This document shows positions 18,842 through 46,504 of a DNA stretch of 64,000 nt, one piece after another. Made by a program: the position numbers and the translations under genes. The stretch is taken from assembly GCA_030647555.1 (NCBI GenBank), contig JAUSJG010000004.1:36661-100660 (forward strand), written 5' to 3'. Numbering within the stretch: position 1 is the stretch's first letter; every line of letters begins with the position of its first letter. Below the pieces are notes generated by a model. It had not been told where the DNA came from, did no database searches, and saw only the letters and a list, made by a program, of their open reading frames with translations. This stretch comes from a bacterium (GTDB lineage Bacteria; Patescibacteriota; Andersenbacteria; UBA10190; CAIZMI01).

Positions 18842-19801
18842 ATGGACACAAAACAAAAACCGAGCCTTCCCCACCTGGATAAATATATTTTGCATTTGAT
18901 CACACACAACTATTCAAAAGAAACAATTTATAATTACGAAAGAGATTTGCAACTGTTGGAAAATTTTTTGAAAAATGATTTGAAAATCCCCTTCCAAAAA
19001 TTCGATAAGCAAGCATTGGAGCTTTATAAAGCCGAGTTGGTTTCGATTGATCGAAAAACGGCAAATGGAGTTACCGCGGGGGCCTCTACCCTATCGTCTC
19101 GTTCCATCAACAGGGCGCTTTCCGCTTTTCGTTCTTATTTATCATTTTTAATTGCAAATGATATTCCGTGTCCTTTACCGCGTGAAGCAGTCACATTAAT
19201 TCGAATGGAAAGACGTCACGCGCGCGTAGCCGAATTGGAAGAATTGATTCGTTTGATTGAAGCACCGACAACAATGGAAAAAAATAAAGAAATTGCGTTG
19301 CGAAATCGTGCGATACTTGAAACATTGTTTGCAACCGGAATGAGAATATCAGAACTCGTGTCATTAAATTGCGATCAAGTGGACGGAAAAGGAAAGATAT
19401 TTGTCAAAGGAAAAGGGAAAAAAGAAAGATTTGTTTATATGACGCCCAGGGCTACGGAATATGTTAATCGGTATGTGTCATTGCATAAGGACAAAAAAGG
19501 CGCGCTGTTTACCCCCCTGCGTGGCAGAAACGCAAAATCACAGAAAGCGAGAATATCAACAAACTATCTGCAAGATAAAATAAAAAAATATCGGGAGGCA
19601 CTTGGAATTGTTGTGCCAACATCGGCCCATTCCCTAAGACATGGGTTTGCTACTTATCTCGCCGAGTCGGGTGCCAACCCCGCGGCTATTCAAATATTGC
19701 TCGGCCACGAATCTTTGGAAACCACAACGAGATATGTGCATCCCTCCGACAGGTTTGCCGAAACAACGCACAAAAAATTTCACCCGCTGCAAAACATCTA
19801 A
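18842..19801 (+). CDS. tyrosine site-specific recombinase (XerC/XerD-like)
   Basis: Catalytic box HSLRHGFATYLAESGANPAAIQILLGHESLETTTRYVH containing the R..H..R..Y signature. Confidence 0.85.
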   Translation: MDTKQKPSLPHLDKYILHLITHNYSKETIYNYERDLQLLENFLKNDLKIPFQKFDKQALELYKAELVSIDRKTANGVTAGASTLSSRSINRALSAFRSYLSFLIANDIPCPLPREAVTLIRMERRHARVAELEELIRLIEAPTTMEKNKEIALRNRAILETLFATGMRISELVSLNCDQVDGKGKIFVKGKGKKERFVYMTPRATEYVNRYVSLHKDKKGALFTPLRGRNAKSQKARISTNYLQDKIKKYREALGIVVPTSAHSLRHGFATYLAESGANPAAIQILLGHESLETTTRYVHPSDRFAETTHKKFHPLQNI

Positions 19802-19866
19802 TGATTTGTCGCCACCAATTTTTTGGATATATTGCGGATGACTCCCAAAAGCGGGATATCTCAAAT

Positions 19867-20018
19867 AATGACCAATGTCCACTACCCAATAACCACTGAA
19901 TGACCACTAAGATAAATGACCAATTTCTACGCATAACGTCACCACTATGATGCTCGTATCCAGTGGTTATTAATGCATTAGTTATTCAGTGGTCATTGGT
20001 TATTGAGTATTGGTCATT
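19867..20018. repeat. cluster of five AATGACCAAT / ATTGGTCATT motifs (3 direct, 2 inverted) immediately downstream of the recombinase gene
   Basis: Direct copies at 19867, 19899 and 19915; inverted copies at 19991 and 20009. Longer inverted arms at 19889-19909 and 19985-20004. Confidence 0.7.
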
Positions 20019-20105
20019 AATCATGGATACACGAAGAAACACGATAAGAAATACTCGTTGGTTGATTAGATCTATCCCGCTATTGCGTGCGATCCCGTAT
20101 TTCTT

Positions 20106-20576
20106 CTATCCTTTCGTTACGCAAACACTCGGTTCGTAACCCGCATCAATCGCCTCTTGTTCCGTTTTAAAGAAAACCAGGTTTTCTTCTTTAATACGTT
20201 TAACTTCGGCGCAACTTGTAAAATAGTATTTTGTGCCGTTTATCGACGCGGCATATTGGCCATTACCGGTTGTAGTACTATTTGTTGCATTATCGGTAGT
20301 TTCTCCTGCAACGCGTGGAAGCATACTCGCAACGGGAGTGGTTTTGGTCGCCGAGGTCAATACTGCGATATCGGCATCCGAAAACACTGATGGAACTGCG
20401 TTTGTGCCCTGAAAAACGATCGGAGACGCTTTTTTAGTCTCCGATGACCAATAACCCACCAAGTAGCCCAGAATCACCAGAAATACGCCTAAAACCCACA
20501 TAAAAACTTTGTCCTCTCGCTTGGCGGTCAATTTTTGCCATTGGTCAGTTACGCTCATGTTAAACATATGGTACAA
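20106..20576 (-). CDS. membrane-anchored protein with C-terminal Ada-like metal-binding motif
   Basis: One TM segment; C-terminus GTKYYFTSCAEVKRIKEENLVFFKTEQEAIDAGYEPSVC resembles the Ada N-terminal Zn-binding pattern. Confidence 0.35.
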   Translation of the reverse strand: MYHMFNMSVTDQWQKLTAKREDKVFMWVLGVFLVILGYLVGYWSSETKKASPIVFQGTNAVPSVFSDADIAVLTSATKTTPVASMLPRVAGETTDNATNSTTTGNGQYAASINGTKYYFTSCAEVKRIKEENLVFFKTEQEAIDAGYEPSVCVTKG

Positions 20577-20655
20577 CTATGGCTGATATTATCCCAGTAA
20601 TACAACCGTCAAGAAGTTGAAAGTATTTGTTTTTTAATATATACTCATCAATTAA

Positions 20656-21915
20656 ATGGAATACGCCTTTTTTCTTGGAAGCAACCCCGGTCTATCGGCC
20701 GTTGAGGTTCACGACTATTTTAAACGCATAAAAATTGTGGCGGATTTTGATTTAACTCGCCTGCCAAAATATTTAATAGTAAAAACCGATGAAACATTGA
20801 AGTGTCAGGCGATTATTGACGGTTTGGGCGGTACGCCGATGATCGCGCAAATAATCGGGGAATTGCCGGATTTGTCCGCCGAAACAATTATTGAAAAAAC
20901 CGGTTTGGAGAGTCGATTTTCGGAAGGACAAAAACCAATTTTCTCAATTTCTTTTGAAACACTTGGTACTTCCCTGCCCGCCTCAAAAAGTCCGCGTGAA
21001 ATTAGAACATTGGGGATAGAAATAAAAAAACTATTGAATAAAAAAGGTTGTCGTGTGGTGGTTCCGCAAATTGGAACTTCATTGAGCACCGCGCAATTAT
21101 TTAATTCAGGCGTGCCGTTTAAGGCGGTTGGTATCCACATTATTGAGCTTGAAAGTGGTCGCTATGTCGCGATGATCGTTACCGCCGTGCAAGATATTGA
21201 TTTTTACACGCGCCGTGATCGAGAGCGTCCGGAAGCCGATCCGGGCAAAGGAATGTTGCCTGTTAAACTTGCGCAAATTTTTATTAATTTTACACAAGCG
21301 GAAATCGGTTCAAAAATATATGATCCGTTTTGTGGCGCGGGTACGATTGTCGCCGAGGCCATGTTACAAGGTTTTAATGTAATAGCTACAGATATTTCTC
21401 TAAGACAAGTTGAACGCACAAAAATTAATACCGATTGGTTAAAAAACACATTTCCTAATTTAGTTGATCCGAGAAAAAACATTGTCGTTATGGCGCAAGA
21501 TATCGAAAAACCGTTACGTGAGATCGAAAACAATTCGATTGACGCGATTGCTTCCGAGGGCTGGCTAGGGCCGGCTACCAACCACGAGTTATCGGCCTTC
21601 GAGATTGAAAATGTTTTCGTGAGAACCCAACAACTGCTTTATGCCCTGCTTGCCAATGTCAGTAGCGCGCTCAAAAGTGGGGCCACAGTGGTTGTGGCAC
21701 TCCCCGCTTTTCGCGTCGATAAACGCATCGTAAGAGCGCCGTTTATGCAAGAAGAATTGCGAAAATTTTTACCAAAGGGCTACAAAGTTGAAAGCCTTGT
21801 CCCGGAAGGTTGGACAAATCCTGCCTTTCGCGACGCCGGTCAAGGAATGATGTTGTATGGTCGCCCAGACGCGGTGATTCTTAGGGATATTGTGCGAATA
21901 AGAAAAACAAATTAG
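20656..21915 (+). CDS. class I SAM-dependent RNA methyltransferase (UPF0020/Trm11-like)
   Basis: Motif I KIYDPFCGAGTIVAEA; N-terminal THUMP-like region. Confidence 0.55.
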   Translation: MEYAFFLGSNPGLSAVEVHDYFKRIKIVADFDLTRLPKYLIVKTDETLKCQAIIDGLGGTPMIAQIIGELPDLSAETIIEKTGLESRFSEGQKPIFSISFETLGTSLPASKSPREIRTLGIEIKKLLNKKGCRVVVPQIGTSLSTAQLFNSGVPFKAVGIHIIELESGRYVAMIVTAVQDIDFYTRRDRERPEADPGKGMLPVKLAQIFINFTQAEIGSKIYDPFCGAGTIVAEAMLQGFNVIATDISLRQVERTKINTDWLKNTFPNLVDPRKNIVVMAQDIEKPLREIENNSIDAIASEGWLGPATNHELSAFEIENVFVRTQQLLYALLANVSSALKSGATVVVALPAFRVDKRIVRAPFMQEELRKFLPKGYKVESLVPEGWTNPAFRDAGQGMMLYGRPDAVILRDIVRIRKTN

Positions 21916-22016: not shown

Positions 22017-22589
22017 ATGTGGCTGATTAATAATCACAGGGACATTGTTCACATACCAATGAGTATGTTAATATATAATCACATTATGGATAAGATATTA
22101 AATCACTCAATAGACGAGAGGGTATATAAAAGCGCAGTACTTTACTTCATAAAGTACTGCAACAATCAGTATTTGCACGCGACAAAACTGAACAAGCTTT
22201 TGTATTACCTTGATTTTATCTACTATCGCGATCACAAAAAATCCGTCACGGGCGACACCTATATTCACCAAGGTTACGGCCCAGTTCCGGCGCGAATAGA
22301 TGAAATACTCGCCAGTTTGAAAAATGAAGGAGTGATAGAAACGGAAGCGGTTGCTCACAATGACGCGGAAATGATTAATTTCACCGTCAAAAACGAGGCG
22401 AAATTCGACGAAGCGGTTTTTACGCCCGATCAAAAAAAACTTCTAAAACAAATTTGCGATCAGTTTGGCGGTTGGCCGACGGAAAAAATAGTCGCACAAA
22501 CGCACCTTGAAGCGCCTTGGTTTTATTCCAAACCCTACGAAATCGTGGACTATTCTTACGCGCGCGATATAGATTTTTTTCGAGAGTAA
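22017..22589 (+). CDS. Panacea (DUF4065)-domain antitoxin-like protein
   Basis: KLNKLLYYLDFIYYRDHKKSVTGDTYIHQGYGPVPARIDE matches the DUF4065/Panacea core (KLqKLLYY ... YGPV); likely start at MDKIL (~22088). Confidence 0.55.
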   Translation: MWLINNHRDIVHIPMSMLIYNHIMDKILNHSIDERVYKSAVLYFIKYCNNQYLHATKLNKLLYYLDFIYYRDHKKSVTGDTYIHQGYGPVPARIDEILASLKNEGVIETEAVAHNDAEMINFTVKNEAKFDEAVFTPDQKKLLKQICDQFGGWPTEKIVAQTHLEAPWFYSKPYEIVDYSYARDIDFFRE

Positions 22590-22598
22590 CATCGAATT

Positions 22599-22985
22599 AT
22601 GGCTTGGGTGTATGTGGAACGGGAAAACTTTGTTCGGATGTGCGAAAAGGCGGGCATTTCAATCGTAGTACGAACGGCGATTAAAACTTGGGCGCCGAGC
22701 GTAAGCAACCTATATCAGTTGGCTCGACAAAAACTGATTTATCGTTCTCCTAAAAATCGTTATGAAATTTGGGCGGCGGGAATCCCAAATCCGGACAGTA
22801 ATAGAGGCAAAAGTGGCGGTTATCGCGTCGTCTATTTTTTTGATTTAACCGAAAAAACAATCAATCTGGACTTCATAGAGGAAAGAAAAGAACTCGGCTT
22901 CAAAAACGAAGGCCAAGCAAAAAAGAATCGCTACACCGATTACGTCAACCAACTGAAAATTTCTCTAAAAAAATTGGATGTTTAG
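22599..22985 (+). CDS. RelE/HigB (Gp49-like) family toxin-like protein
   Basis: GKSGGYRVVYFFDLTEKTINLDFIEERKE resembles the G.GYRV.Y core of HigB/Gp49-family toxins; lies 9 bp downstream of the Panacea gene. Confidence 0.5.
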   Translation: MAWVYVERENFVRMCEKAGISIVVRTAIKTWAPSVSNLYQLARQKLIYRSPKNRYEIWAAGIPNPDSNRGKSGGYRVVYFFDLTEKTINLDFIEERKELGFKNEGQAKKNRYTDYVNQLKISLKKLDV

Positions 22986-23117: not shown

Positions 23118-26100
23118 TTACTTTCCTTTTTTATCTTTTTTGACATGGGTTTTTGTTACTTTCCTTTTCTTCGGTTTTGACGTCCAGTATTTGCCGGGGT
23201 TTTTATCTCTTAGTTTTTTTATAATATCCTGTGCGTCTTTATCGGTGGCCACGTATTGCTTGATAATCTCCACCAGTTTATCGCTTTCGTGAAGTTCCAA
23301 ATCTCTCGGAAAAGAAAAGAATATTTTTACGGCTTCCATAAACTTATCTTTTCCAAAATTGTCGTGCAACAGTTCCAATATCCTCGAATGATACTGAGCC
23401 GGGTACCAATAAACATTTGCCAAGTTGCCGATTTCCGCTTGTTTTTCATAAAATCCTTTTTCTACTTCAAAACACTTGATCAGCAATTGATACCACTTTT
23501 GCGCATCTTTTTGAGGCTTACTAAATTCCCGCTCCATGGTTTGATAAATGACATTAAAAATATTGCGAGCATAAATGTCAGAAAGCAATTCAAAATATTC
23601 CAAAGCAAGCTCTGTGTTTTTCGGCATTTCTTCGGGCGATCCTTCCCGCAAAGCGTGTTCGACGGATGACGCGAATCTGAAACAACTGTCAGGATCTTCT
23701 TTTTGCATTTCCTTTATGGTTTCAATCAGGATTGTTTTGAACTTTCTCTGATCATATTTCTCCGGTCCGAGATCGTCATATAAACCAGGCATGCCAAACC
23801 GCCAATTAACATATTTATTCTTTCTAAACTCTGCGTAGTAAATAAACAACGGCGCAGCTTCTTTTTTGATGTCAGCCGACAGGTTTGCTATGGCGGTCAC
23901 GAACCTTAAAGAATCCTTCTCATTCAATGCCCTGATGGGGTCAAAAACGTGCAACACGCTCTTGATTAACGATTTTTGAACCGGCGGTGGCCACGCAATG
24001 AATTTATCCAGCAAATCAAATGCAACACTTTCAATTTCTTTTGACATTCGTAGTGCCCTTTCCCTGTCGTCGTTCAAAAACAGAAGCTCTCTGTTTTCCG
24101 GCAACACGGTCAGCCGGTTGCGAGCCAGTTGGCCAAGTGGTAGGGTGGCCATTTGTATTACGTAATAATTCGGGTCGTTAACCAACTTCTTCGTCAGTTC
24201 AATCACTTCGGCCACTTGTCCTCGCCCCGAAAGTACGGCGCATTTCGTCAGCACCCACCCGCACCAACCGCGAACCGAAGCAATTGCGTTCGATTCCTTA
24301 CCTTCCAGAATACTTTTGTGTTCACTGTATTTATCTTCCGGATCGCGCGGATCTTTGCCGAGCGAATACGGGTCTGGGTCGTCGATAAAAATACGAATAA
24401 TTTTTAATGCCTCGACTATTTTTTTCTTGGTCGCCAGCCTTGCCGCGAATTGAACGAAGGCCTCGCGACAACTGGCGTTAGTCAGCCACTTGGATATTTC
24501 AGCTACATTGTCGCCGTGTTTTTTTAAGAACGGAACGACAACCTCTTTGTAAATTTTCAGTAGCAATTCTTCGTCATCGGAGTCATCGTTTCCCAAGTGA
24601 TTAAACAAAGCGTAGGAATAAATAATTTGCTGATCTTCACTGGGTTTTACCTCGTTTTCCAACAAACGAATTATCGACAAGCCGGCGACATAATCTTTTC
24701 TGATTATTTCATTCAACAGAGAGGCTACGGTATAAGCGCCAAAATGATCACTTTTTTCTTTTTTGATATAGTCGCTTGCAATAAAGGTTGTAAACAATTC
24801 AACGGCAAGTTTCAAATCAGTTTCCAGCAGTGTCTTAATGCCTGACACAACTTCGAAATCAAACATAAAACGCTCGTAATACTTTGGGTTAGAGTACCAT
24901 TTTCGCATCGTTTGTTTGGCTTGCAGAAAACCATTTTTGGCCAAATCGGTCACAATCCGTTCAACAAAGGGATTAACCGGAATGCCGTATTTTTTAACAG
25001 TCAGTTCAACCAACTTCCATTTTTTGCCGTCGGACAGAGCAATGTTGCCGGCAGACCAATAGATCAGTTCGGATTTGTGCGGAATGCCTTTTTTTAAAAG
25101 AATAAATTCTTTTAAAATCTCAAAAGCCTCGTTGGAAACATTTTCGTCCGTGTTCACATATCGGTTTATGACTATTTCACAAACCGCGCGGTTTAAAAAA
25201 TCAGGCTTGTACTTGTTTACCTCGTGTGGCATTGAGATACAACGCTCTTTGATAAATTGCCAACCCTTGGCTTTATCCTTTTCGTAATATTGATTAATGG
25301 CCGGTGTAAGAATGAAAGACACAAAATGCCGTTCATTAATGGCATATTGGCCGGAATCATAAGAAATTCCGCCACCCATATATTCCCACCCTTTGAAGTT
25401 CATTTTGCTTTTGAATTTTTCATAATATTTTTGGTATTGGGCACTCGCCATTTTTACAAATTCGTCAAACCGGCCTTCGAAATCTTCATTTAGCCATTCA
25501 CGCAATATCTCGTAAACGTCGCGGGGGGCGTGGTGGATAAATTCTCCTTCGTCTTGCGTGATATTAAACGCGGAGGCGATTAAATCAATAACTTTTTGTT
25601 TCAGGTTGCCTTCCGTGTCGCGCTCGTATATTTTTCGCGCAAGCTTGCAAATTTCTTCTTTTTCCCATTCGCCGTGTTCGTTTCCGGTATCTTTGAGATA
25701 GAAAAAATCATTTTCATTAAACATAATCAGGTCTTTCGCTATAATGAACGCGTCGTCCAGATATTCTGCACCATCCTCCCCTTCGATAATCTTTTTAACT
25801 ATCCTCACAATATCCACGTTAAAATAATCGGTTCGATAAAAACCACGAATCATTTTTGTGTATTTTTTAATATAGCTCAATATATACTTTCGATTTTTGT
25901 CTGTATGTAAATTGTTTTCGAAAATATAAAAGATTCCGAAGTTAAATGCATAGATCCTATTTAATTTCCAAACAGGATCCCAGTTTTTTAGAACCAACTC
26001 GTTATGTTTATTTTCCAGCCTATCTTTCGCAAACTTTAATCGTTCATAATCGGTTGAAAATGCAGAAAGCTCTTTTGGCACTTGCCATATACCATGGTTC

Positions 26101-26840
26101 GGATTACTTAATGCTCTTTCGAGTTCCCAGAATTGTTGCTCCCTTTTGCTTAGTTGCTCGTTGTAATAAACACTATTTTGCCTTGTTTCAACAGCAATGT
26201 TATTTATTTCTTTCAGAATATCTATTCGGGAATATGTGTCACCGACAGCCGACCCGATATAAATTTTTTGCACAAGGATGCTATCTGAGATTCTTTTAAT
26301 GTCTTCTTCCGATAACCAAAAGTTTAACAGATCGGTAAAAAGGGAATAAATTGTTTTTTGTATAAATCCAGATTTTATATGCCAAAACCTAACCCTAGGA
26401 AGTAAACTAATCATTGCCGCGGAATACCCTTTTTCCTTAAATTGATCTTTTACACCATCCCAATAACGAGAATTTTCAACGCGGGAAATTAATTCTGTAT
26501 TAACATTAGTGCAAACGATCAGTATCTCGTCGGCGTCTGCGACTTCTTTGCTTGCTACCACCTTAGTCAGAAACTCTTTTAAATGTGCGTAATTAAAAGG
26601 CTTTTTTCTATCTTTTGATTCACAAATTATTCTTTTACCATCATTAAAAACTAGATTGAAATCTTCAAACCCCTGGGCTTCAAGGTGAATATGTGAAAAA
26701 TTTGGATCGCGTAAAAACTGCAGAAATAACGACATGGCAGCCCATGCCTGTGTATTAATTCCTTTATAGTTGCTTTGTCCTGCTCTGCCCATAAGATTAT
26801 TTAAACTCAAGGTAAAAATGAATTCCATTGTCCGACCCAA
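23118..26840 (-). CDS. 1240-aa alpha-helical protein with N-terminal PD-(D/E)xK / Cap4(DUF4297)-like nuclease-like domain; defence-island component
   Basis: N-terminus GRAGQSNYKGINTQAWAAMSLFLQFL ... EDFNLVF ... ICESKDRKK fits a D...E.K nuclease signature; no Walker A anywhere; Lys-rich C-terminal tail; start overlaps the upstream gene by 44 bp. Confidence 0.5.
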   Translation of the reverse strand: MGRTMEFIFTLSLNNLMGRAGQSNYKGINTQAWAAMSLFLQFLRDPNFSHIHLEAQGFEDFNLVFNDGKRIICESKDRKKPFNYAHLKEFLTKVVASKEVADADEILIVCTNVNTELISRVENSRYWDGVKDQFKEKGYSAAMISLLPRVRFWHIKSGFIQKTIYSLFTDLLNFWLSEEDIKRISDSILVQKIYIGSAVGDTYSRIDILKEINNIAVETRQNSVYYNEQLSKREQQFWELERALSNPNHGIWQVPKELSAFSTDYERLKFAKDRLENKHNELVLKNWDPVWKLNRIYAFNFGIFYIFENNLHTDKNRKYILSYIKKYTKMIRGFYRTDYFNVDIVRIVKKIIEGEDGAEYLDDAFIIAKDLIMFNENDFFYLKDTGNEHGEWEKEEICKLARKIYERDTEGNLKQKVIDLIASAFNITQDEGEFIHHAPRDVYEILREWLNEDFEGRFDEFVKMASAQYQKYYEKFKSKMNFKGWEYMGGGISYDSGQYAINERHFVSFILTPAINQYYEKDKAKGWQFIKERCISMPHEVNKYKPDFLNRAVCEIVINRYVNTDENVSNEAFEILKEFILLKKGIPHKSELIYWSAGNIALSDGKKWKLVELTVKKYGIPVNPFVERIVTDLAKNGFLQAKQTMRKWYSNPKYYERFMFDFEVVSGIKTLLETDLKLAVELFTTFIASDYIKKEKSDHFGAYTVASLLNEIIRKDYVAGLSIIRLLENEVKPSEDQQIIYSYALFNHLGNDDSDDEELLLKIYKEVVVPFLKKHGDNVAEISKWLTNASCREAFVQFAARLATKKKIVEALKIIRIFIDDPDPYSLGKDPRDPEDKYSEHKSILEGKESNAIASVRGWCGWVLTKCAVLSGRGQVAEVIELTKKLVNDPNYYVIQMATLPLGQLARNRLTVLPENRELLFLNDDRERALRMSKEIESVAFDLLDKFIAWPPPVQKSLIKSVLHVFDPIRALNEKDSLRFVTAIANLSADIKKEAAPLFIYYAEFRKNKYVNWRFGMPGLYDDLGPEKYDQRKFKTILIETIKEMQKEDPDSCFRFASSVEHALREGSPEEMPKNTELALEYFELLSDIYARNIFNVIYQTMEREFSKPQKDAQKWYQLLIKCFEVEKGFYEKQAEIGNLANVYWYPAQYHSRILELLHDNFGKDKFMEAVKIFFSFPRDLELHESDKLVEIIKQYVATDKDAQDIIKKLRDKNPGKYWTSKPKKRKVTKTHVKKDKKGK

Positions 26841-27885
26841 AATCCGATGCGGTCAATTCTCTTATTGGCAAACTGGCTAAAAGTAAATGCCTGGGTGGAC
26901 ATACAAAGGAAACGATTCCCTGCGGATGCGAAAGACAGAAATCTTTTATACTGGCAAATAAGCAACGTCCAGCTGGGTCTATTTTTTTGAACAGATTAAT
27001 TAAATCAGCTTTTTTTCCATCAACTATTTTCGAATATTGCTTTTTATTGAAAATTTTACTCTCTCCGATTGACGTTTTTTCTACAGTTTCAAGTTCGGGA
27101 GATGTCCCCGTGCTAAGAAAATCATTCTTTGTTGGAGTAATAACATATGGATAAGTATTAATTGAAAGCGCAACCACCTCATTTCTAGAAAAAGTATACT
27201 GTTGAGTATTTATGCCAAAAACAAAGTTGGGAGGGGTGCCTGGGTTAGTAAGACGAATTTCCTCAATTTTTATATGTAAAACATCGTCAACTAATAAACT
27301 GTGTTTTGCCTCCCTCTCTCTTACATAAGAACGTCTATGTAGATAACCATCGACCGATTCTTTTTCTAATTCTTTTTGGATTACTGATATTATTTCATTG
27401 TGTTTAGTTTTATCACTATTTGATGCATTGGGAAAAATCTCGTTTGCATCGATAATATTTAAATGAGGGATTTTATCCTTCAAGAAATCAAAATCCCATA
27501 TACTAATTTTGAAAGGAAATTTGTTTATAACATTTAAACTTGTTAACCTTTCGGAAAATATTGTATTACTTTTATATCTTTTATGAGGGATAAAAATACA
27601 ATATACATCCGGGTAATAGCTACTCCCCATAGACATTAGCTCTAAAATCTTATCGCTAAAATCAGATAGCTCTACTTCTAAAACATCGCTATAATTATGA
27701 TTGTGTTTTTGGCGATTGAGATCTTTACATTCGAATTTCCAAAAATATTCCTTTCCTTGTATTTTAAAATTAGCATAGGCATCATACCCATTCTGTAGTC
27801 CTGAACGATTAGGCCAATATAAGGGCGTGAAAAGGTTCCTCATTATATTCGCCAAGTTATTTTCTAATTGTTGACCCTTGCTCAT
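26797..27885 (-). CDS. restriction-endonuclease-like protein (PD-(D/E)xK-like N-terminus)
   Basis: GYDAYANFKIQGKEYFWKFECKDL fits a D..(E)xK pattern; its ATG overlaps the MTase stop by 4 bp. Confidence 0.4.
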   Translation of the reverse strand: MSKGQQLENNLANIMRNLFTPLYWPNRSGLQNGYDAYANFKIQGKEYFWKFECKDLNRQKHNHNYSDVLEVELSDFSDKILELMSMGSSYYPDVYCIFIPHKRYKSNTIFSERLTSLNVINKFPFKISIWDFDFLKDKIPHLNIIDANEIFPNASNSDKTKHNEIISVIQKELEKESVDGYLHRRSYVREREAKHSLLVDDVLHIKIEEIRLTNPGTPPNFVFGINTQQYTFSRNEVVALSINTYPYVITPTKNDFLSTGTSPELETVEKTSIGESKIFNKKQYSKIVDGKKADLINLFKKIDPAGRCLFASIKDFCLSHPQGIVSFVCPPRHLLLASLPIRELTASDFGSDNGIHFYLEFK

Positions 27886-30800
27886 ATATTTACTTTTTCA
27901 TTGCCCTCAACAATTTTTATTTCCTCATTTGTTAAGTCGTAGAGACTATACACCAACGCATCTATTTGGCGTTCAAAGTCCTGGATCTTAGCTTGTTTTT
28001 CGGCGTTTACTAAATAGTCGTTAGATTGAATCACCTTTTGTATATTGTCTTCGAGAGCAATAAAATCAAGTTGAATATTATTCTCAAGTACTGCCTGCGG
28101 AATGGGTATTTGCTGGATGTAAAAGTCATACAAGTGCATTGTTCTTATTGCCCGTGCGTAGATGAAATTGTATGCATACCAATTTACAAAGCTGGAATTA
28201 AGATAAGAAAGCCAAAATTTTGACGACAATTTATCATCTAACGCAAAAGACATCAGCGTGTTAGTGATAATTATTCCTTCGGCATCATAGCAAGCTGTTA
28301 ACTTTATATGTGGCTTTGGATTATCAATATGTGCAACTAAAACTTGCGCTATAACTTTTGGTTTTAAAAATTTTTTGGCTGAATCCCAATTCAATTTTGA
28401 TTTATTTTTTAACCACCTATTAGATTTTATTTTCCATCGAGCGATATCTATGCCCTTTAAAAGTTTATAATCGGTTTGTTTATCAGAGAAAAAGTCTGTT
28501 CCAATAGCAAGACCCAATCTCCCCTTAACAAGGTGTTCGTTTGTTTTTGCGTCCTGAATTTTTTGCCAAAGCGTTTTAGAGATAAGCAATTTATAGATTT
28601 GGGCTGTACCATTTTCCGCAAATATTTCGGCCTTATGTCCTGATGCAAACTCAAAAACAACATCGTTCTTATTCAAATAAGAACATCTCACTTTATCATT
28701 AGAGCTGTTTTTCACTAAACCAAAAGCATTAGCCTCAAGTAACACTTCGTCAAACGCCTTACTTGAGTCAAGCAAAAACCTAAGATTATATTTCAACCAA
28801 TACTCTTTCCTGAATCCATCCCACGCATCACCATACAGTGATTTCTTGGGGATTATGAAAGTTAAAATACCGTTCGGTCTAACTAAATTGTTAAATGATT
28901 TTTTACAAAATAATTCAGCACTGTCACCACTACTAAACTCAATATTTTCTATTTTTCGATAATATGTTTTTTGTTCTGAAGTCAAAACATTTCTAAAACC
29001 ATACGGCGGATTTCCGATTACCACGTCAAATCCTTCTTTAATGCCGAACATAAACAACGGATCGAAAAATTCGGCACTGGAGTCGGAATTAAACGGATCG
29101 TAGGACAATAATTGTTCCTGTCGTTTTGATTTTTTGGTTTTTATTATTGACCCTTTGCCATTACCTTTTAATAAATCCGCAAAATCTTGCTTCATTTTTT
29201 CCTTAATATTCCGACTGCTGGAGGTGAAATAACGATCCCTAATCGTCCGCATTTTTTCTTCCAGCTTATCGTGATCCCAAATAGAAGTTTGGCCGTTGGG
29301 CGCCAAGGGAATTAAGCTGTTGGCGCAAACAAATTTAAATTCCAAATTTGGCAACGGATCAATACCCATATTCTGCCTATCCGGCAAAATCGGCTCGTCT
29401 ACCACCAGTGAAAGCCAAGCGCGCAGGCGCGATATTTCCACCGCCATCGGCTCGATATCCACGCCGAAAATGTTTTTCTCAATAATTCCCAGTTTTGTTT
29501 TGTAACTATCAAACCGACTTTCAATGCGATCATAAACCGTGGAGATTAATTGCATCATCCCAATTGGAAATGCTCCGGAGCCACAAGCAGGATCGAGAAT
29601 TTTCATTTCATCCAACGCGGAGACCAATTTTGCTTTATAGGGAGCGATGTCGCGTCGATCATTTTTTGAGTCAAACTCGTGCTCTTTTTTATCTAACAAT
29701 AATGACAATAATTTTTCTTTGCGTTCATCTTCGCCCAGTTTTTCTGACAAAAACGCTCGCAAGCTTTCTTTGCACATATATTCCACAATTTCACGCGGTG
29801 TATAGAAAGCGCCTTTCGCTTTGCGCGCCTGCTTGCCGGTTTCGTCCGTAATTTCTGCGAGCAAGTTTTCAAAAATCCTGCCCAACATTTCCGGATCAAT
29901 TGCCACTTGCTGAAAATCGCTGGTAGATTCGTCGGTGGTGAAATGGTAGCCATTTAAGAAGGCATAGAACCGCTGGAAAAAATCGGCCGGAAAAGTGAGT
30001 AGAGGGTCGCCATTGAGATCAGAATCCTTCGGTTCAAATAAACCGCCGTTCAGAAATGGAGTTTTAGCGTCTGTTGGAAAAAGGGTTTTCGCGCCCTCCT
30101 TTTTTCCAAACAGCGTTGCGTCAATTTTGTCCGCGTTTTTTTCGCGCTCGTCCATTGGCGTATTAAGCGTGCGGAAAAATAGCAATTCGAGTTTTGAATG
30201 ATAATAATTGGTGGCATCCGTACTAGAAGCGTCAAAATAGCCATACTGCTCCGAAATTATCCCCTTTTTGCGGAGAAACCAGCAGAAAATCAATCGGCCA
30301 ATTAAGCGCGTGGCAAATTGCCGGCGATGATCGCCTGCCAGGATATTTTTGTTTTCCAAATGTTGGAGTAGCTCGGTAAAAAAGCGTGAGATTTCTTTGT
30401 AGAATTCTTTATTAAGCGGACGAATATCGAAGCTATCCCATAAAATGTGATGGACTTGCGCCTTATTGGTAAAATCAAAACTCTGGAGCCAGTGGTTAAA
30501 AATTGTTTTTTGGGTGTTGGATAGTTTTCCATCCAGTTCTAACGTGCGGATTTTATAGTTGTTGCTTAAAACAATAATCAGCTTGTCCGCTTTATCGGAT
30601 ACCACAAAATCAATCCCGACATTTTTATTCGCGTAAATTTTTTCATCCTCAAAATTCGGGGTTAAGGTAACCAGATTGGCAATTACTTTTTTTGACGGTT
30701 TTTGCGCCCAAAATAACTTAAAATCAATGCCGTAATCCTTCTCTGTTTCCAGTGCGTAACTGGCTTTTCGATCCGCGAATTCCGGCGCGTTTTTCACCCA

Positions 30801-30989
30801 GCCCGGGTGCGCTTTCAGTTGTTTAAATTGACGTAATGTTGGTGTTGCAGAGACCACACCGAGCATAGACACAATCTCTTTTGCCACGGAAAACACATCG
30901 TTTAGATTTCCGCTCTTCTTGGCGCTCTGAAGGGCGTCGTCAATTTTGGAAAAGACTTCGTCGGCGTGATTATTTATTTTCACGGGCAT
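27882..30989 (-). CDS. gamma-class N6-adenine DNA methyltransferase (Eco57I/MmeI/PglX-like), 1035 aa
   Basis: GAFYTPREIV (motif X), ILDPACGSGAFP (motif I, SAM-binding), VVIGNPPYG (motif IV); large C-terminal region is probably the target-recognition domain. Confidence 0.85.
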   Translation of the reverse strand: MPVKINNHADEVFSKIDDALQSAKKSGNLNDVFSVAKEIVSMLGVVSATPTLRQFKQLKAHPGWVKNAPEFADRKASYALETEKDYGIDFKLFWAQKPSKKVIANLVTLTPNFEDEKIYANKNVGIDFVVSDKADKLIIVLSNNYKIRTLELDGKLSNTQKTIFNHWLQSFDFTNKAQVHHILWDSFDIRPLNKEFYKEISRFFTELLQHLENKNILAGDHRRQFATRLIGRLIFCWFLRKKGIISEQYGYFDASSTDATNYYHSKLELLFFRTLNTPMDEREKNADKIDATLFGKKEGAKTLFPTDAKTPFLNGGLFEPKDSDLNGDPLLTFPADFFQRFYAFLNGYHFTTDESTSDFQQVAIDPEMLGRIFENLLAEITDETGKQARKAKGAFYTPREIVEYMCKESLRAFLSEKLGEDERKEKLLSLLLDKKEHEFDSKNDRRDIAPYKAKLVSALDEMKILDPACGSGAFPIGMMQLISTVYDRIESRFDSYKTKLGIIEKNIFGVDIEPMAVEISRLRAWLSLVVDEPILPDRQNMGIDPLPNLEFKFVCANSLIPLAPNGQTSIWDHDKLEEKMRTIRDRYFTSSSRNIKEKMKQDFADLLKGNGKGSIIKTKKSKRQEQLLSYDPFNSDSSAEFFDPLFMFGIKEGFDVVIGNPPYGFRNVLTSEQKTYYRKIENIEFSSGDSAELFCKKSFNNLVRPNGILTFIIPKKSLYGDAWDGFRKEYWLKYNLRFLLDSSKAFDEVLLEANAFGLVKNSSNDKVRCSYLNKNDVVFEFASGHKAEIFAENGTAQIYKLLISKTLWQKIQDAKTNEHLVKGRLGLAIGTDFFSDKQTDYKLLKGIDIARWKIKSNRWLKNKSKLNWDSAKKFLKPKVIAQVLVAHIDNPKPHIKLTACYDAEGIIITNTLMSFALDDKLSSKFWLSYLNSSFVNWYAYNFIYARAIRTMHLYDFYIQQIPIPQAVLENNIQLDFIALEDNIQKVIQSNDYLVNAEKQAKIQDFERQIDALVYSLYDLTNEEIKIVEGNEKVNI

Positions 30990-33900
30990 ATAACAATAAT
31001 GATTGGGCTTGATTAGGAATAATAATCGTCTCTTCTTCGGCTACAGCCTCGCGAGCCAGGGCTATCAGTTCTTTAAGGTTATCATTATACGGCTTTTGGT
31101 TTCGGTGCGCCTTCGCGACATCTCTCACAAGATTATCCATTTTACTGTTGAGCAAGTGATTGTGGGTGTTAAAAGCATTACCCACCAGATCTATTTCCTC
31201 CAGCGTGTAATTATGGTCGTGCATAATCCGCAATATCATCGCTTTTTGCCCCGTCGGCAATGACGCTTCTTCGTTGCCGATCGAGAAATTTGTCGGTATG
31301 TCGGCCACCTCTTTCAGTTTAATCTTATCAAGAGTTAGCTTATCGACATCCCTGCGATTGTCGGTTTCATTGGTTCTAATTAATCGTAAAGCTTCCAGGA
31401 CCGGCATAGCGCTACGCTCCTCGCCGTTTCGGTTCATTTTAATGAATTGAGGTATCAGTTTTTCATGGTCTTTGTAAAGTTCGCTTAATGCTAAAACCTC
31501 CGGCAATAATTCATCCTTTTTCGTTGGTAAAACAGCCCACTTGCCTTTTGGGATGTTATAAATTGACTGCTTGTATTCTTCTGTTTTTTCCGTGTCATTC
31601 GCAAACTGTTTCAAATCGTGCACAAAGTCGTCTTCGGCAAGTAAAAAGTCACCTGCTTCTTCAGCGAGCTGATAAGCCCTAAGCCTCTTTTGTTCGTCGT
31701 CGCTGTAAATCTCAATAAACTCCATCGGGTTAGCTGTTTCCCCCAGCACCGACTGATCAATTCCGATTGTGCTATTAATTAATTCAATTTTTCCCTCCAA
31801 TCTTTTTACCAGTCTTAAATATGCCTCTAGTTTTTTATCGGGGCTCATATTAAAAATAATTATTTTCGCGTATTCCGATCCAAGCCGGTTCACGCGCCCG
31901 TTGCGTTGTATCATACGCACGGGATTCCAGTGCAGGTCATAATTAATAATTGTTCCGCAGTCTTGCAGATTTTGCCCTTCAGAGAGAATATCTGTTGAAA
32001 ACAAATAACGCAATTCACCCTTGTTTTTATCGCATTGCTTGTAATGTTTGGCAATTGGCGCGAAACGTCCCGCAAGGTCTGTCGCCTCGTCACGATTTTT
32101 TCCAGTAAGAAAGCCTGCGTTTGTTTCATTCACCAAACCACCCGACGCGACTTGTATGTTTGCTTTTAAATATTCCACAGTATCAGAAAAGTAAGAAAAT
32201 ACCAGTACTTTTTCCCCCGCCGGTTTTGTTTTGTTCAGCTCCACTAAAACATTTGCCAACTTGGCCAATTTTGTGTCGCCTTGTTTAAACAACAAAAGAC
32301 AATCTGAAATAATCTTTATAATTTCTTTTTCCATGGTTATGTCTTTCTTAAATGCCTCCACGTTGTATTTGTTTTCATCTACCTCGTCTTGAACATGCTT
32401 TTCCAAAAGTTCGGCATCCACATCACTCAAATCTTCCTCGTCTTCATCACGCATCGCGTCACACAGAACATCAAGATCTTTCATTGCTAATATTTTTTCT
32501 TGCTTAAGCCCCTTTTCAAACATAACGAGATTGTTTTCGTATTTTTTCAATGATTTTTCGATGGCGTACACTGAAGATTCCATGCGTTTTAAAAAGATAG
32601 TGCGAAAAATGCCGTAAATGCCACGTTGTTGTTGGAGCGCTTTGCTTTGTTCGGCAGGCAAACGCATTTCTTTTATTTGTTCTTTGGTTTTTCCATAATA
32701 TCTTGTTTGATAAATACGCCACCGATACGGAATAAAGCCCAACATCAGAATCATTTGATATACAAAATAAACGGGAGATTCATTAGTCAGATCAGCTTCT
32801 GAATAAACTCGCTCCGCCAGTTCCAGTTGATCCAAAGGATGCATAAGCATACTGCATTTTTCCACGATATCCTCGGGTTTCCTGCTGTAAACAGACAACA
32901 AATCAATCTGTTGTGACTTGTTCTCCATAATTTTTTTGGTCATTTCCGGTGGCAAATGATAATTGGCGTTTTGGGGATCTGCCTTGGGAAATTCGTATTC
33001 TTTTCCGTTTATAATTAGTTTTCCGTATTCTTTTTCAATACCCTGACGCGTTCGACGCACAACAAGGGTGCGAATAATCGGAGCCATGATTTGCTTAATT
33101 TCTGCATAATCCGGCATTTCCTCTTTATTAAGTTTGCGATTGATTTTATTTTGCAAATCAGCTACGGCCTGAAAAAAATCTTTCATCTCGCTTTGTCCGG
33201 TTTTCCGATCAACAGTCATCACCTTATCCACAACATCCCCTCTGCCTCTTGTGCCAAGTATCAGCTGTCTACTTAAGTCTTGAATTTCGTTATTGATTGG
33301 TGTGGCGGTTAATAAAAGCACATCAGCTTTTTTGTTATTTCTAATCCAATTTAATAACGCATTGTATCTGGTACCGCCGGTTTTTCTTAGGTTATGTGAT
33401 TCATCAACAACAAACAACGACACAGAAGCCAAATCATCAAGTTTTTGCTCTTCTTTCATTGCGTTAATATTTTGAAGGATCACGGGTTTCAGATGCATCA
33501 CACCGGAGTTTATTAATTCTGCTTTCCATTGTTCCTCCAATGACTTCGGACATACCACGATTACCCGCTTCTTACCCTCCTCACTATCAAGATAATGTTT
33601 CATAACTTCGATTGCCGTGTATGTTTTTCCCAACCCCACCGAATCGGAAAGCATCGCTACGTGATATTTTTCCAGCTTTCTAAGTAACTGTTGAACATTT
33701 CTTTTTTGGAATTCCATTAACTCATAACTTTTATCCGTACTTTCCTTGAGAGCAACATCCTCTAGTTCGTCTTTGTAGAGTTCGTAAAGGGTTTTTATGT
33801 ATGTTTCATATGGACTGAATAATACGTCGCCAACAGGAGACATTTCCAGAATCTCAATAAATTTTCCGTTCCAATTTTCCGTTGTCGGGTCATTCCATAA

Positions 33901-34452
33901 TTGATCAAACCAAAACAAGTGCCCCACTTCTTGTTGCTCCGATTGCGGTTGAAAGGTTACAATCCGCGAGTCCTCTTCGATATCATTTAATTCCGTATTC
34001 ACCGTTAGACCATTTTTGGTAAAATTTGACGAGCCGATTATGCCAACCGCTTCATTTGATTTATAATCGCCAAAAACATAACACTTGGCGTGTAAAAATG
34101 TTTTTCGATAGACTTTAACTTCCAGTTTTCCCGCGCTGATTAATGCTTTTATTTGAATTACAACTTCCTTGAGTTTTTTGTCTTGAATAATATTTTCTAA
34201 ATCGTGAAAAATATCCTTGTCTGGAAAATCCGGTTCTGGGGCACTTATTGCGTGTCGAGGAATAAGGGGTTCGCGTCCTATCAATAATCGGATTTTATCC
34301 AAATTTTTTATTTTATCAATAAGCAGAGCGGTGCCGGGCAAATCCCAATAGCCTGTCGCTATTGATACTTGTTTGAAGTTTGGCATTATCTCGCAAATTA
34401 CATCTGCGAGTTTGTGTCTGCTATTGTCGATAATTTGGGGTATTTTAGGCAT
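30970..34452 (-). CDS. PLD-family nuclease domain fused to SNF2/SF2 helicase, 1160 aa
   Basis: N-terminal HKD motif (HAKCYVFGD ... GSSNFTKNG); helicase motifs I DSVGLGKTYTA, II VVDESHNLR, III LLLTATPINN, VI QRNGRVNRLGS. Confidence 0.85.
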   Translation of the reverse strand: MPKIPQIIDNSRHKLADVICEIMPNFKQVSIATGYWDLPGTALLIDKIKNLDKIRLLIGREPLIPRHAISAPEPDFPDKDIFHDLENIIQDKKLKEVVIQIKALISAGKLEVKVYRKTFLHAKCYVFGDYKSNEAVGIIGSSNFTKNGLTVNTELNDIEEDSRIVTFQPQSEQQEVGHLFWFDQLWNDPTTENWNGKFIEILEMSPVGDVLFSPYETYIKTLYELYKDELEDVALKESTDKSYELMEFQKRNVQQLLRKLEKYHVAMLSDSVGLGKTYTAIEVMKHYLDSEEGKKRVIVVCPKSLEEQWKAELINSGVMHLKPVILQNINAMKEEQKLDDLASVSLFVVDESHNLRKTGGTRYNALLNWIRNNKKADVLLLTATPINNEIQDLSRQLILGTRGRGDVVDKVMTVDRKTGQSEMKDFFQAVADLQNKINRKLNKEEMPDYAEIKQIMAPIIRTLVVRRTRQGIEKEYGKLIINGKEYEFPKADPQNANYHLPPEMTKKIMENKSQQIDLLSVYSRKPEDIVEKCSMLMHPLDQLELAERVYSEADLTNESPVYFVYQMILMLGFIPYRWRIYQTRYYGKTKEQIKEMRLPAEQSKALQQQRGIYGIFRTIFLKRMESSVYAIEKSLKKYENNLVMFEKGLKQEKILAMKDLDVLCDAMRDEDEEDLSDVDAELLEKHVQDEVDENKYNVEAFKKDITMEKEIIKIISDCLLLFKQGDTKLAKLANVLVELNKTKPAGEKVLVFSYFSDTVEYLKANIQVASGGLVNETNAGFLTGKNRDEATDLAGRFAPIAKHYKQCDKNKGELRYLFSTDILSEGQNLQDCGTIINYDLHWNPVRMIQRNGRVNRLGSEYAKIIIFNMSPDKKLEAYLRLVKRLEGKIELINSTIGIDQSVLGETANPMEFIEIYSDDEQKRLRAYQLAEEAGDFLLAEDDFVHDLKQFANDTEKTEEYKQSIYNIPKGKWAVLPTKKDELLPEVLALSELYKDHEKLIPQFIKMNRNGEERSAMPVLEALRLIRTNETDNRRDVDKLTLDKIKLKEVADIPTNFSIGNEEASLPTGQKAMILRIMHDHNYTLEEIDLVGNAFNTHNHLLNSKMDNLVRDVAKAHRNQKPYNDNLKELIALAREAVAEEETIIIPNQAQSLLLYARENK

Positions 34453-34559: not shown

Positions 34560-34799
34560 CAACAGACACCTCCTGTATCAAAGTCTTGTCTTGTTCTTTG
34601 ACAACAACCGGTGGTTTTTGTTACATTTCCAACTGAAGCATGCAATAATACCTTAAGAGGCGCTGGGGTGTTCCCTCGGAGATTCCGGGGCTTAAGCTCC
34701 AGATAACCACCTCTCAAGACGCTGCTTCTACTAGAAGATGATAAATTTGGATCGGGGCGTCCCCGGTCGGCAAGGGGTCCCGCAAGGGACTTTTTGTTA
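34560..34799 (+). ncRNA. candidate small structured RNA ending in an intrinsic terminator (identity unresolved)
   Basis: 515-bp gene-free interval with GC-rich paired segments (GGGGCGUCCCCGG ...); perfect terminator GGUCCC-GCAA-GGGAC + UUUUUGUU at 34776-34799. Confidence 0.3.
34775..34799 (+). terminator. rho-independent terminator
   Basis: ggtccc gcaa gggac followed by tttttgtt. Confidence 0.6.
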
Positions 34800-44606: not shown

Positions 44607-44682
44607 TGGTGCGCCCACCAAGAATCGAACTTGGAACCGTTGGCTTAAAAGGCCACTGCTCTACCAATTGAGCTATAGGCGC
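44607..44682 (-). tRNA. tRNA-Lys (anticodon UUU)
   Basis: Reverse complement GCGCCUAUAGCUCAAUUGGUAGAGCAGUGGCCUUUUAAGCCAACGGUUCCAAGUUCGAUUCUUGGUGGGCGCACCA. Cloverleaf with 7-bp acceptor stem, U8, GG in D-loop, anticodon loop CUUUUAA, T-loop UUCGAUU, encoded CCA. Confidence 0.85.
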
Positions 44683-46311: not shown

Positions 46312-46504
46312 TCTCTTCCTTCTTATTTGGTCCCCGAGGGGACGTTGGGAAAACAGCGAACCAGACTTTGAGACGGCACCCGTCTCTCTCATGAGCGTGT
46401 TTTTACCTCAAAACAAGCTCATAAAAGCAGGTGAAATAAGAGAAAAGTATACTCCCGAAATCAGATTTTGTCAATGGTGCCGGTTTGGAGGTATTATGAG
46501 CATG

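Follow-up and report, generated by a model that had tools for sequence, protein, structure and literature searches.

The operon and its last gene

We analysed a window of 64,000 nucleotides (nt) from a bacterium of the Patescibacteriota lineage Andersenbacteria (GenBank assembly GCA_030647555.1, contig JAUSJG010000004.1, positions 36,661–100,660 of the forward strand), and focused on the gene for a giant protein that a first-pass annotation, made from the letters alone, had placed at 23118–26840 as the last gene of an operon. Both points held. The open reading frame (ORF) is present on the minus strand with 1240 codons, and it is the fourth of four minus-strand genes that overlap or abut one another. 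The genes next downstream, a SocA/Panacea antitoxin-domain gene and an ORF of 128 amino acids (aa), are convergent with it. The giant ORF is far above chance, as 185 homolog clusters cover 97% of the query length. The features of the operon and of the giant gene are as follows.

30970–34452, minus strand: 1160-aa PLD(HKD)-SNF2 helicase, the first gene of the operon
27882–30989, minus strand: 1035-aa Eco57I/type IIG-like N6-adenine DNA methyltransferase with a TaqI_C specificity domain
26797–27885, minus strand: 362-aa partner gene of family F2 (346–379 aa), overlapping the methylase gene by 4 nt
23118–26840, minus strand: giant ORF with a TTG start, 1240 codons including the stop
23118–26792, minus strand: likely true giant coding sequence with an ATG start, 1224 aa (from homolog starts and distance to the upstream stop)
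26157–26792, minus strand: N-terminal nuclease domain of the Cap4/DUF4297 type, PD-(D/E)xK class (residues 1–212; alpha-beta-beta-beta-alpha-beta core and helical lid)
26613–26681, minus strand: putative active site E38 ... D44 ... E58-S-K60 (HLEaqgfEDFnLvF...IICESK), from conservation
23181–26156, minus strand: HEAT/ARM-like alpha-solenoid of ~990 aa without nucleoside triphosphatase (NTPase) motifs, best conserved in residues 521–640 and 801–920
23121–23180, minus strand: Lys-rich C-terminal tail (SKPKKRKVTKTHVKKDKKGK), a non-conserved extension

A search of 5.8 billion protein clusters returned the 185 homolog clusters. Among the matches listed (120 of the 185), identity to the giant was 37–64%, nearly all proteins were ~1205–1225 aa long, and they were named 'hypothetical protein' or had no name. 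Their N-termini align with the second in-frame methionine of the ORF (MGRAGQSNYKGIN...), whose ATG at 26792 sits 5 nt past the stop of the upstream 362-aa gene. Because the homologs begin there and the ATG lies so close behind the upstream stop, we dropped the TTG start in favour of ATG 26792, and the giant protein is probably 1224 aa long. The NCBI annotation has 1236 aa, from an ATG at 26828. Residue numbers below count from the methionine at 26792; numbering for the 1240-aa ORF is obtained by adding 16.

A Cap4-type nuclease domain with a near-invariant active site

We used an AlphaFold2 model of residues 1–1200, built with 69 homologs in the alignment (mean predicted local distance difference test score 89.7), to examine the fold. 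Residues 1 to ~210 form an alpha-beta-beta-beta-alpha-beta core with extra helices. That is, the domain has the restriction-endonuclease core and helical elaboration found in Cap4, HamA and LmuA, the three nucleases that the first-pass annotation had named for comparison. Structures of all three matched the giant, and the comparison gave the following scores.

8zue_A, AbpA/HamA-like: 14.9
6vm6_A, Cap4: 14.5
9ux8_C, LmuA: 13.4
8dgc_A, SeAvs3 nuclease: 13.0
9hqx_A, LmuA: 11.5
7yib_A, EcCap4: 11.5

Conservation of the active site was assessed in an alignment of 156 homologs. Three rows were gapped at the active-site columns, leaving 153 counted sequences that include archaeal and gammaproteobacterial ones at ~27–33% overall identity. 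Residues E38, D44, F45 and C57 were kept in all 153. E58 was present in 151 (glutamine in the other two), K60 in 152 (arginine in the other), and G11 and Q15 in 152 each. The catalytic acidic residues and the lysine of the (E/Q)-x-K motif fall in strands 2–3, and the active-site segment has the lowest entropy of the whole protein, being its most conserved stretch. The D...E-x-K signature and Cap4-like opening that had been noticed at the N-terminus are therefore real, with E38, D44, E58 and K60 near-invariant and the fold in agreement.

Sequence searches were less telling. In a Pfam scan the giant did not reach the gathering score of PF14130 (Cap4_nuclease) and had no match to it even at E ≤ 1, and searches of PDB sequences with the giant family profile and with the N-domain alone (phmmer included) found no match. 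A profile of the N-domain did align in register with partner proteins from other loci (see below) that match PF14130, at weak significance (E 7e-4, probability 26%). Together, the conservation of the active site and this weak in-register match indicate that the N-domain is a divergent member of the Cap4/DUF4297 structural superfamily that lies outside the Pfam sequence definition, and that it is very probably catalytically competent.

A helical body without an NTPase

The model is helical throughout beyond the nuclease domain. Antiparallel helix pairs are stacked into a superhelix, as in the HEAT/ARM class, and structural matches of this region include condensin Ycs4/Ycg1, Pds5 and FANCI/FANCD2; the earlier prediction of an alpha-solenoid-like protein was thus borne out. 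After the active-site segment, the best conserved parts of the giant are solenoid residues 521–640 and 801–920, and the most variable are the linker 201–240, residues 641–680 and the C-terminal 160 residues. A pattern search for Walker A/B motifs was empty, as had been stated, and the Pfam scan showed no NTPase domain in the giant.

Two compositional claims survived in part. Aromatic content is raised, at 12.8% W+Y+F (W 1.9, Y 4.9, F 6.0), a value that is moderately but not extremely high. The Lys-rich tail exists, with 11 K/R in the last 20 residues versus a family mean of 5.5, but it is private to this giant. We rejected the tail as a functional nucleic-acid-binding element, and since it is not a feature of the family it carries no functional argument.

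An exchangeable partner gene

We read 51 distinct loci containing a giant gene, many of which, among those without restriction-modification genes upstream, are broken off by contig ends. To assign partner families we combined clustering by BLAST with local profile searches and Pfam. The same-strand gene directly upstream of the giant usually overlaps the giant gene by 4–8 nt, and its family differs by locus. At least six partner families were found, mutually unrelated by BLAST and hhalign except for a link between the Cap4 family and family F4.

AlbA_2/Schlafen-like, ~265 aa: 8 loci
F2 (the family in the window), 346–379 aa: 9 loci, plus one locus with the C-terminal half only
Cap4_nuclease, ~264 aa: 5 loci
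F4 (Cap4-like N-terminus), ~300 aa: 6 loci
Mrr_cat-like, ~200 aa: 6 loci
CHAT protease, ~365 aa: 2 loci

Four loci (L001, L036, L042, L043) have no recognisable partner, and in one locus a SIR2 gene overlaps the giant on its downstream side. The F2 protein combines a putative PD-(D/E)xK-like motif (E8, D35, E52-C-K54), in which E8, D35, E52 and K54 are invariant, with a C-terminal domain. Its family is small (13 homolog clusters), and every F2 gene on the contigs read has a giant gene directly downstream of it. Scans with Pfam, NCBIfam and PADLOC and a PDB profile search gave no match for F2, and hhalign of F2 against the giant N-domain and the Mrr-like and Cap4 families gave nothing.

In a neighbour-joining tree built from the giant proteins, branches with different partner types are thoroughly mixed. 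The clearest case is the pair L014, with an F2 partner, and L015, with an AlbA_2 partner: their DNA is 89% identical over exactly the giant gene and shows no identity upstream. This limit of identity indicates that partners are swapped as whole cassettes, with the junction at the edge of the gene.

A query with the solenoid only, against 1.84 billion representatives (clusters at 50% identity), returned 276 clusters at E ≤ 1e-3, of which 135 reached E ≤ 1e-30. The canonical architecture of ~1200 aa was joined here by other forms. Solenoid-only proteins of ~940–1020 aa exist without a nuclease domain, and in locus L048 a gene for a CHAT protease precedes such a protein. In P0170 (1.1e-23) and P0212 (5e-28) the N-terminal ~320 aa are the whole F2 family domain, in place of Cap4; in P0222 it is F4 (4e-47) that stands in place of the Cap4 domain before the solenoid; and P0190 and P0211 have an HTH_3 domain ahead of the Cap4 domain. 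The F2-solenoid fusion provides a Rosetta-stone link between the 362-aa gene of the window and the giant, and it shows the solenoid to be the constant element and the enzymatic modules to be interchangeable. We concluded that the functional unit is a cassette of two genes, the variable partner and the giant, and not the four-gene operon in which the giant was first described.

Two side observations concern the composition of the cassette. The 203-aa partner at L034:1867-2478 matches only the C-terminal half of F2 (profile positions 245–350), so F2 may be built of two parts, a nuclease-like N-domain and a C-domain that can be separated from it. A ~365-aa family without a PADLOC match stands directly downstream of the giant in three loci (L015:11667-12773, L033:3753-4841, L043:11556-12674) and could be a third, optional component.

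Linkage to restriction-modification systems

A restriction-modification system lies immediately upstream of the cassette, on the same strand, in at least 17 of the 51 loci, and the systems are of several types.

Type I (HsdR with or without HsdS and YgjP): L013, L015, L029, L053
Type III (Mod and Res): L012, L019, L024 (L024 also GmrSD)
Type IIG-like methylases: the window, L009, L023, L031, L034, L049, L054–L056
Type II: L020

The cassette overlaps the last restriction-modification gene by 4 nt in the window and in L031, and follows it after gaps of 2–57 nt in L012, L019, L024, L015 and L023. Restriction-modification models predominate among the 130 nearest neighbours of the cassette. Other neighbours are SIR2, PDC-S05 and PD-T7-5 homologs (downstream), and recombinases are frequent. 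In L003 the cassette is on its own, surrounded by housekeeping genes and without a restriction system on either side; flanks free of restriction systems were seen in several further loci as well.

The fold, the conserved active site, the absence of an NTPase, the exchange of partners, the fusions of partners to the solenoid, and the linkage to restriction-modification systems and defence islands were all observed here. An antiviral-type nuclease, a helical body, an exchangeable partner and linkage to restriction-modification systems together suggest that the giant is the conserved core of a two-gene, NTPase-free candidate anti-phage module that is probably undescribed; we put the probability of this reading at roughly 55%. 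We ranked it first because the anatomy matches known single-chain proteins that join an effector to a repeat-region sensor.

The position of the cassette at the 3' end of four types of restriction operon, often with translational coupling, would also suit a guard of the restriction system, that is, an anti-anti-restriction backup like PrrC, PARIS or Ronin. Such a cassette would stay silent while the adjacent restriction system works and fire upon a phage anti-restriction protein (for example a DNA mimic or a peptide inhibitor) or a disabled complex, with the solenoid sensing either the inhibitor itself or the condition of the complex. There are precedents in PrrC/EcoprrI, Ronin and PARIS, which are triggered by Stp, ArdA or Ocr (bioRxiv 10.1101/2023.04.06.535777), and a solenoid conserved across phyla is expected if the ligand belongs to a conserved class. 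However, the linked restriction systems are unrelated to one another, so that a single conserved solenoid can hardly be expected to dock on every one; L003 and several other loci carry the cassette with no restriction system in the flanks; and PADLOC showed no similarity to PrrC, AriA/AriB or RonA. We consider a guard function rather unlikely.

The genes upstream of the cassette in the window raise another alternative. The methylase matches Pfam Eco57I (4.5e-27), N6_Mtase and TaqI_C, and PADLOC REase_MTase_IIG (5.4e-129); the helicase matches Pfam PLDc_2, SNF2-rel_dom and Helicase_C, and PADLOC 'HKD+Snf2' (C3a139, 6.7e-49) along with DrmD-like models. The giant and its partner might be the integral restriction subunit of a four-gene, methylation-based system resembling defence island system associated with restriction-modification (DISARM) or bacteriophage exclusion (BREX), in which the methylase would mark self DNA, the helicase would translocate, and F2 and the giant would cut unmodified DNA. 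Consistent with this, the four-gene order of the window, with its 4–8-nt overlaps, recurs in L054, L055 and L056, where the extent of divergence is similar for the four proteins (identity 25–27% for SNF2, ~31% for the methylase, 39–43% for F2 and 30–32% for the giant). L049 has the same order with an F4 partner and one extra gene. The matches to DrmD-like and PglX/DrmMI-like models are weak, with NCBIfam scores far under the cut-offs (for example, DrmD 150.7 bits versus 610 and PglX 85.9 versus 500). Against such a system, the cassette also stands behind type I, II and III systems and alone. A metagenome scan for SNF2 relatives, in which an alignment query gave the loci and a single-sequence query gave none, found a giant or F2 gene in 0 of 80 loci; even the closest relatives, L057 (45% identity) and L058 (39%), keep the methylase while lacking the cassette. 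Furthermore, neither the giant nor F2 matches any DISARM or BREX model, and the operon lacks genes of the DrmA/DrmB/PglZ type. An integral role in a four-gene system is thus unlikely.

The same scan yielded an observation of its own. The PLD/SNF2 helicase with an Eco57I-like methylase is widespread without the cassette (L058, L122, L128 and others of L057–L136), including three loci, L058, L122 and L128, with at least 5 kb of further downstream sequence. The pair seems to be an independent restriction-like system of two genes.

Distribution of the family bears on a fourth possibility. The structural matches to condensin subunits, Pds5 and FANCI/FANCD2, and the conserved blocks of the solenoid, could be taken to mean a housekeeping factor for DNA repair or chromosome organisation, in which a nuclease is joined to a HEAT scaffold as in the condensin HEAT subunits and FANCD2/FANCI. 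Yet the family is patchy over distant bacterial and archaeal phyla, being common in Patescibacteria (the Candidate Phyla Radiation, CPR) and reaching archaea; the 276 clusters are few among 1.84 billion representatives; its neighbours are restriction-modification genes, SIR2, PDC-S05, PD-T7-5, recombinases and integrases; and the adjacent gene is rapidly exchanged. A housekeeping role therefore seems barely credible.

Among the homologs seen, L001, in Legionella sainthelensi (CP025491.2, 1368589–1392161), is the only one from a cultured species that has a name and a complete genome sequence. Upstream of it lie a tyrosine recombinase gene and one for an Mrr_cat_2-helicase, and downstream a 559-aa gene without annotation. 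This locus is possibly a tractable entry for experiments.

A proposed mechanism and its difficulties

Returning to the anti-phage module, we infer its defence activity, trigger, mode of activation and the role of the partner as follows. The solenoid would act as sensor and scaffold, at rest keeping the nuclease, and probably the partner too, inactive. Binding of an infection cue to the solenoid would change its conformation or oligomeric state; candidate cues are a phage protein, a nucleic-acid structure or a disabled neighbouring restriction system. Cap4, Avs3 and LmuA are activated through a change in oligomeric state, and by analogy the giant is likely to be activated in this way. Its nuclease domains would be brought together as in those proteins, DNA would be cut, and the infection would be stopped or the cell killed. 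The upstream gene would supply an interchangeable second effector-like protein, in the window the nuclease-like F2, and the cassette would form an added layer of defence at the 3' end of restriction-modification operons while being an obligate part of none. The first-pass annotation had offered the giant as 'a sensor or effector'; it is probably both, a nuclease effector domain with a solenoid sensor/scaffold, and the operon unit is amended to the two-gene cassette.

Several results weigh against this mechanism. Mean column identity is 50%, so that the solenoid is well conserved across phyla. Such conservation is unusual for a surface that follows fast-evolving phage proteins and fits a conserved ligand better, for example DNA or a host complex. 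In a mutual-information test, columns of the giant alignment carried no signal for partner class (global z −0.67, n = 27), and hhalign found no domain common to the partner families, save the match of the Cap4 family with F4. With neither co-variation nor a common adaptor, direct and specific contact between giant and partner is unsupported by sequence. A conserved solenoid that does not co-vary with its partners would fit a conserved ligand, DNA or an anti-restriction factor for instance, and this keeps alive both the guard and the four-gene methylation-based system. The motif of F2 suggests a PD-(D/E)xK nuclease, at the level of the motif only, because hhalign against the nuclease families was empty. 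Finally, the giant family was not found in the plasmid and phage collections searched.

The lack of co-variation and of a common adaptor would also be expected of two independent, single-gene defence nucleases that happen to lie side by side, with the upstream slot serving as a hotspot in which unrelated small defence genes gather and the giant acting alone like DSR2 or Upx. The giant has an intact nuclease of its own, and the four loci without a recognisable partner fit as well. Against independence, F2 and F4 are fused to the solenoid elsewhere, orientation is consistent and the genes overlap by 4–8 nt, the small F2 family always lies directly upstream of a giant on the contigs read, and the solenoid-only proteins would be left without an effector if they had no partner. 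We regard independent neighbours as very unlikely.

A bolder form of the anti-phage module can be put forward tentatively, as a possibility to which we give limited credence. The cassette may represent a novel class of plug-in immune module without an NTPase, in which the HEAT solenoid reads a conserved infection signal and licenses whichever effector is fused or adjacent to it (a nuclease of the Cap4, Mrr-like or F2 kind, a protease of the CHAT family, or an AlbA_2/Schlafen-like domain), forming a common second layer for all types of restriction-modification and being especially prevalent in Patescibacteria. That signal might be a particular state of DNA or some class of anti-restriction factor, and not a fast-evolving phage protein.

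Comparison with known defence systems

The closest anatomical parallels are two NTPase-free, single-chain proteins. DSR2 is a chain of ~1000 aa in which an N-terminal SIR2 domain is followed by a HEAT-repeat region that binds a phage protein and controls the effector (PMC11263360). The giant likewise has an N-terminal effector, a long helical region and no NTPase. In contrast to DSR2, its effector is a Cap4-type nuclease fold, with no SIR2 match in Pfam or PADLOC; there is no detectable sequence similarity, and DSR2 was not among the top 50 and top 60 structural matches listed for the giant. DSR2 also lacks both an obligatory variable partner gene and any reported link to restriction-modification. 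Upx is a single chain of ~1200 aa with a PD-(D/E)xK nuclease and a large sensor, without an NTPase, that senses the phage terminase (PMC13601566). The giant resembles it in size and in joining such a nuclease to a large non-NTPase region, but does not belong to the Upx sequence family and does not share its order of N-terminal sensor and C-terminal nuclease.

Other systems share the nuclease type and differ in its control. Avs3 combines a Cap4-like nuclease with a STAND NTPase and TPR repeats, and Avs proteins are defined by the STAND NTPase between effector and sensor; the giant has neither Walker A/B motifs nor an NTPase fold, and is all-helical after the nuclease domain. Cap4 of the cyclic-oligonucleotide-based anti-phage signalling system (CBASS) comes with a SAVED/CARF domain and a CD-NTase, neither of which turned up among the four proteins of the operon. 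HamA is controlled by the helicase HamB, and LmuA by the SMC-like ATPase LmuB. No HamB-like gene is conserved beside the giant, and PADLOC gave no HamA match for it; nor did it give LmuA or LmuB matches for the giant or F2, and no SMC-like gene was seen in the loci examined. The cassette thus has no conserved NTPase partner, as conservation of the cassette does not extend to the SNF2 gene found in the window. With respect to DISARM and BREX, the giant and F2 had no PADLOC or NCBIfam match, and neither DrmA/DrmB (DUF1998) nor PglZ/BrxC features were found. PrrC, Ronin and PARIS resemble the cassette in that an effector module is attached genetically to restriction-modification loci. They differ in that there is no homology (theirs are an ABC-type ATPase/anticodon nuclease, a 61-aa membrane peptide, and AriA/AriB) and in that the cassette is linked to all restriction types without being obligatory to any.

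The architecture and family of the giant are not covered by Pfam, NCBIfam or PADLOC 2.0. Searches of the literature on Cap4 with HEAT repeats, alpha-solenoid defence sensors, HEAT repeats with restriction-modification, and Patescibacteria defence yielded no description of the family. The initial remark that no described defence protein with this architecture was recognised has stood up in these searches, with no full-length match to a known family, to a helicase or to a BREX/DISARM core protein. We concluded that the building blocks are known and that the architecture and family have probably not been described before. The defence repertoire of Patescibacteria is described as poorly known, and the systems 'Dallas' and ldgA reported there are given as text without sequences or sizes, so that the giant is not comparable with them (bioRxiv 10.1101/2025.02.28.640651).

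If the giant does defend, it would add a protein with a Cap4-type nuclease to the NTPase-free, single-chain combinations of effector and helical-repeat sensor represented by DSR2 and Upx, in Patescibacteria and archaea, groups whose antiviral repertoire is poorly charted. Its unusual traits would be a second effector gene that can be swapped and in some cases is fused to the solenoid, and its strong tendency to ride at the ends of restriction-modification operons of all types. The conserved solenoid offers a handle on which signal a non-enzymatic repeat protein reads during infection, and the natural fusion and fission variants make the logic of effector swapping directly testable.

Neighbouring genes and other features of the window

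Just outside the operon, at 18842–21915 on the plus strand, lie a tyrosine integrase (Phage_integrase, 1.4e-34) and a 419-aa methyltransferase-like protein (UPF0020/N6_N4_Mtase). Because these genes adjoin the operon, the 18.8–34.5 kb stretch suggests a mobile defence island inserted beside rpmA/pyrG. The convergent genes at 22017–22985 (plus strand) encode a 190-aa SocA/Panacea antitoxin-domain protein (2.3e-18) and, 10 nt later, the 128-aa ORF, which has no match; they are likely a PanA-type toxin-antitoxin pair.

Two further features were seen beyond the operon. A DUF3800-V RNA motif of Rfam (78.5 bits versus a gathering score of 37.4) is located at 34634–34729 on the plus strand, opposite to that of the operon, in a non-coding gap of ~500 nt between the start of the PLD-SNF2 gene and rpmA, with no DUF3800 gene seen beside it. 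The region 44905–46392 has a G+C content of 0.51 versus ~0.40 and contains antisense ORFs of 495 and 482 aa that overlap almost fully. The 495-aa ORF has no Pfam match, and a tRNA gene adjoins the region at 44610–44682 on the minus strand.

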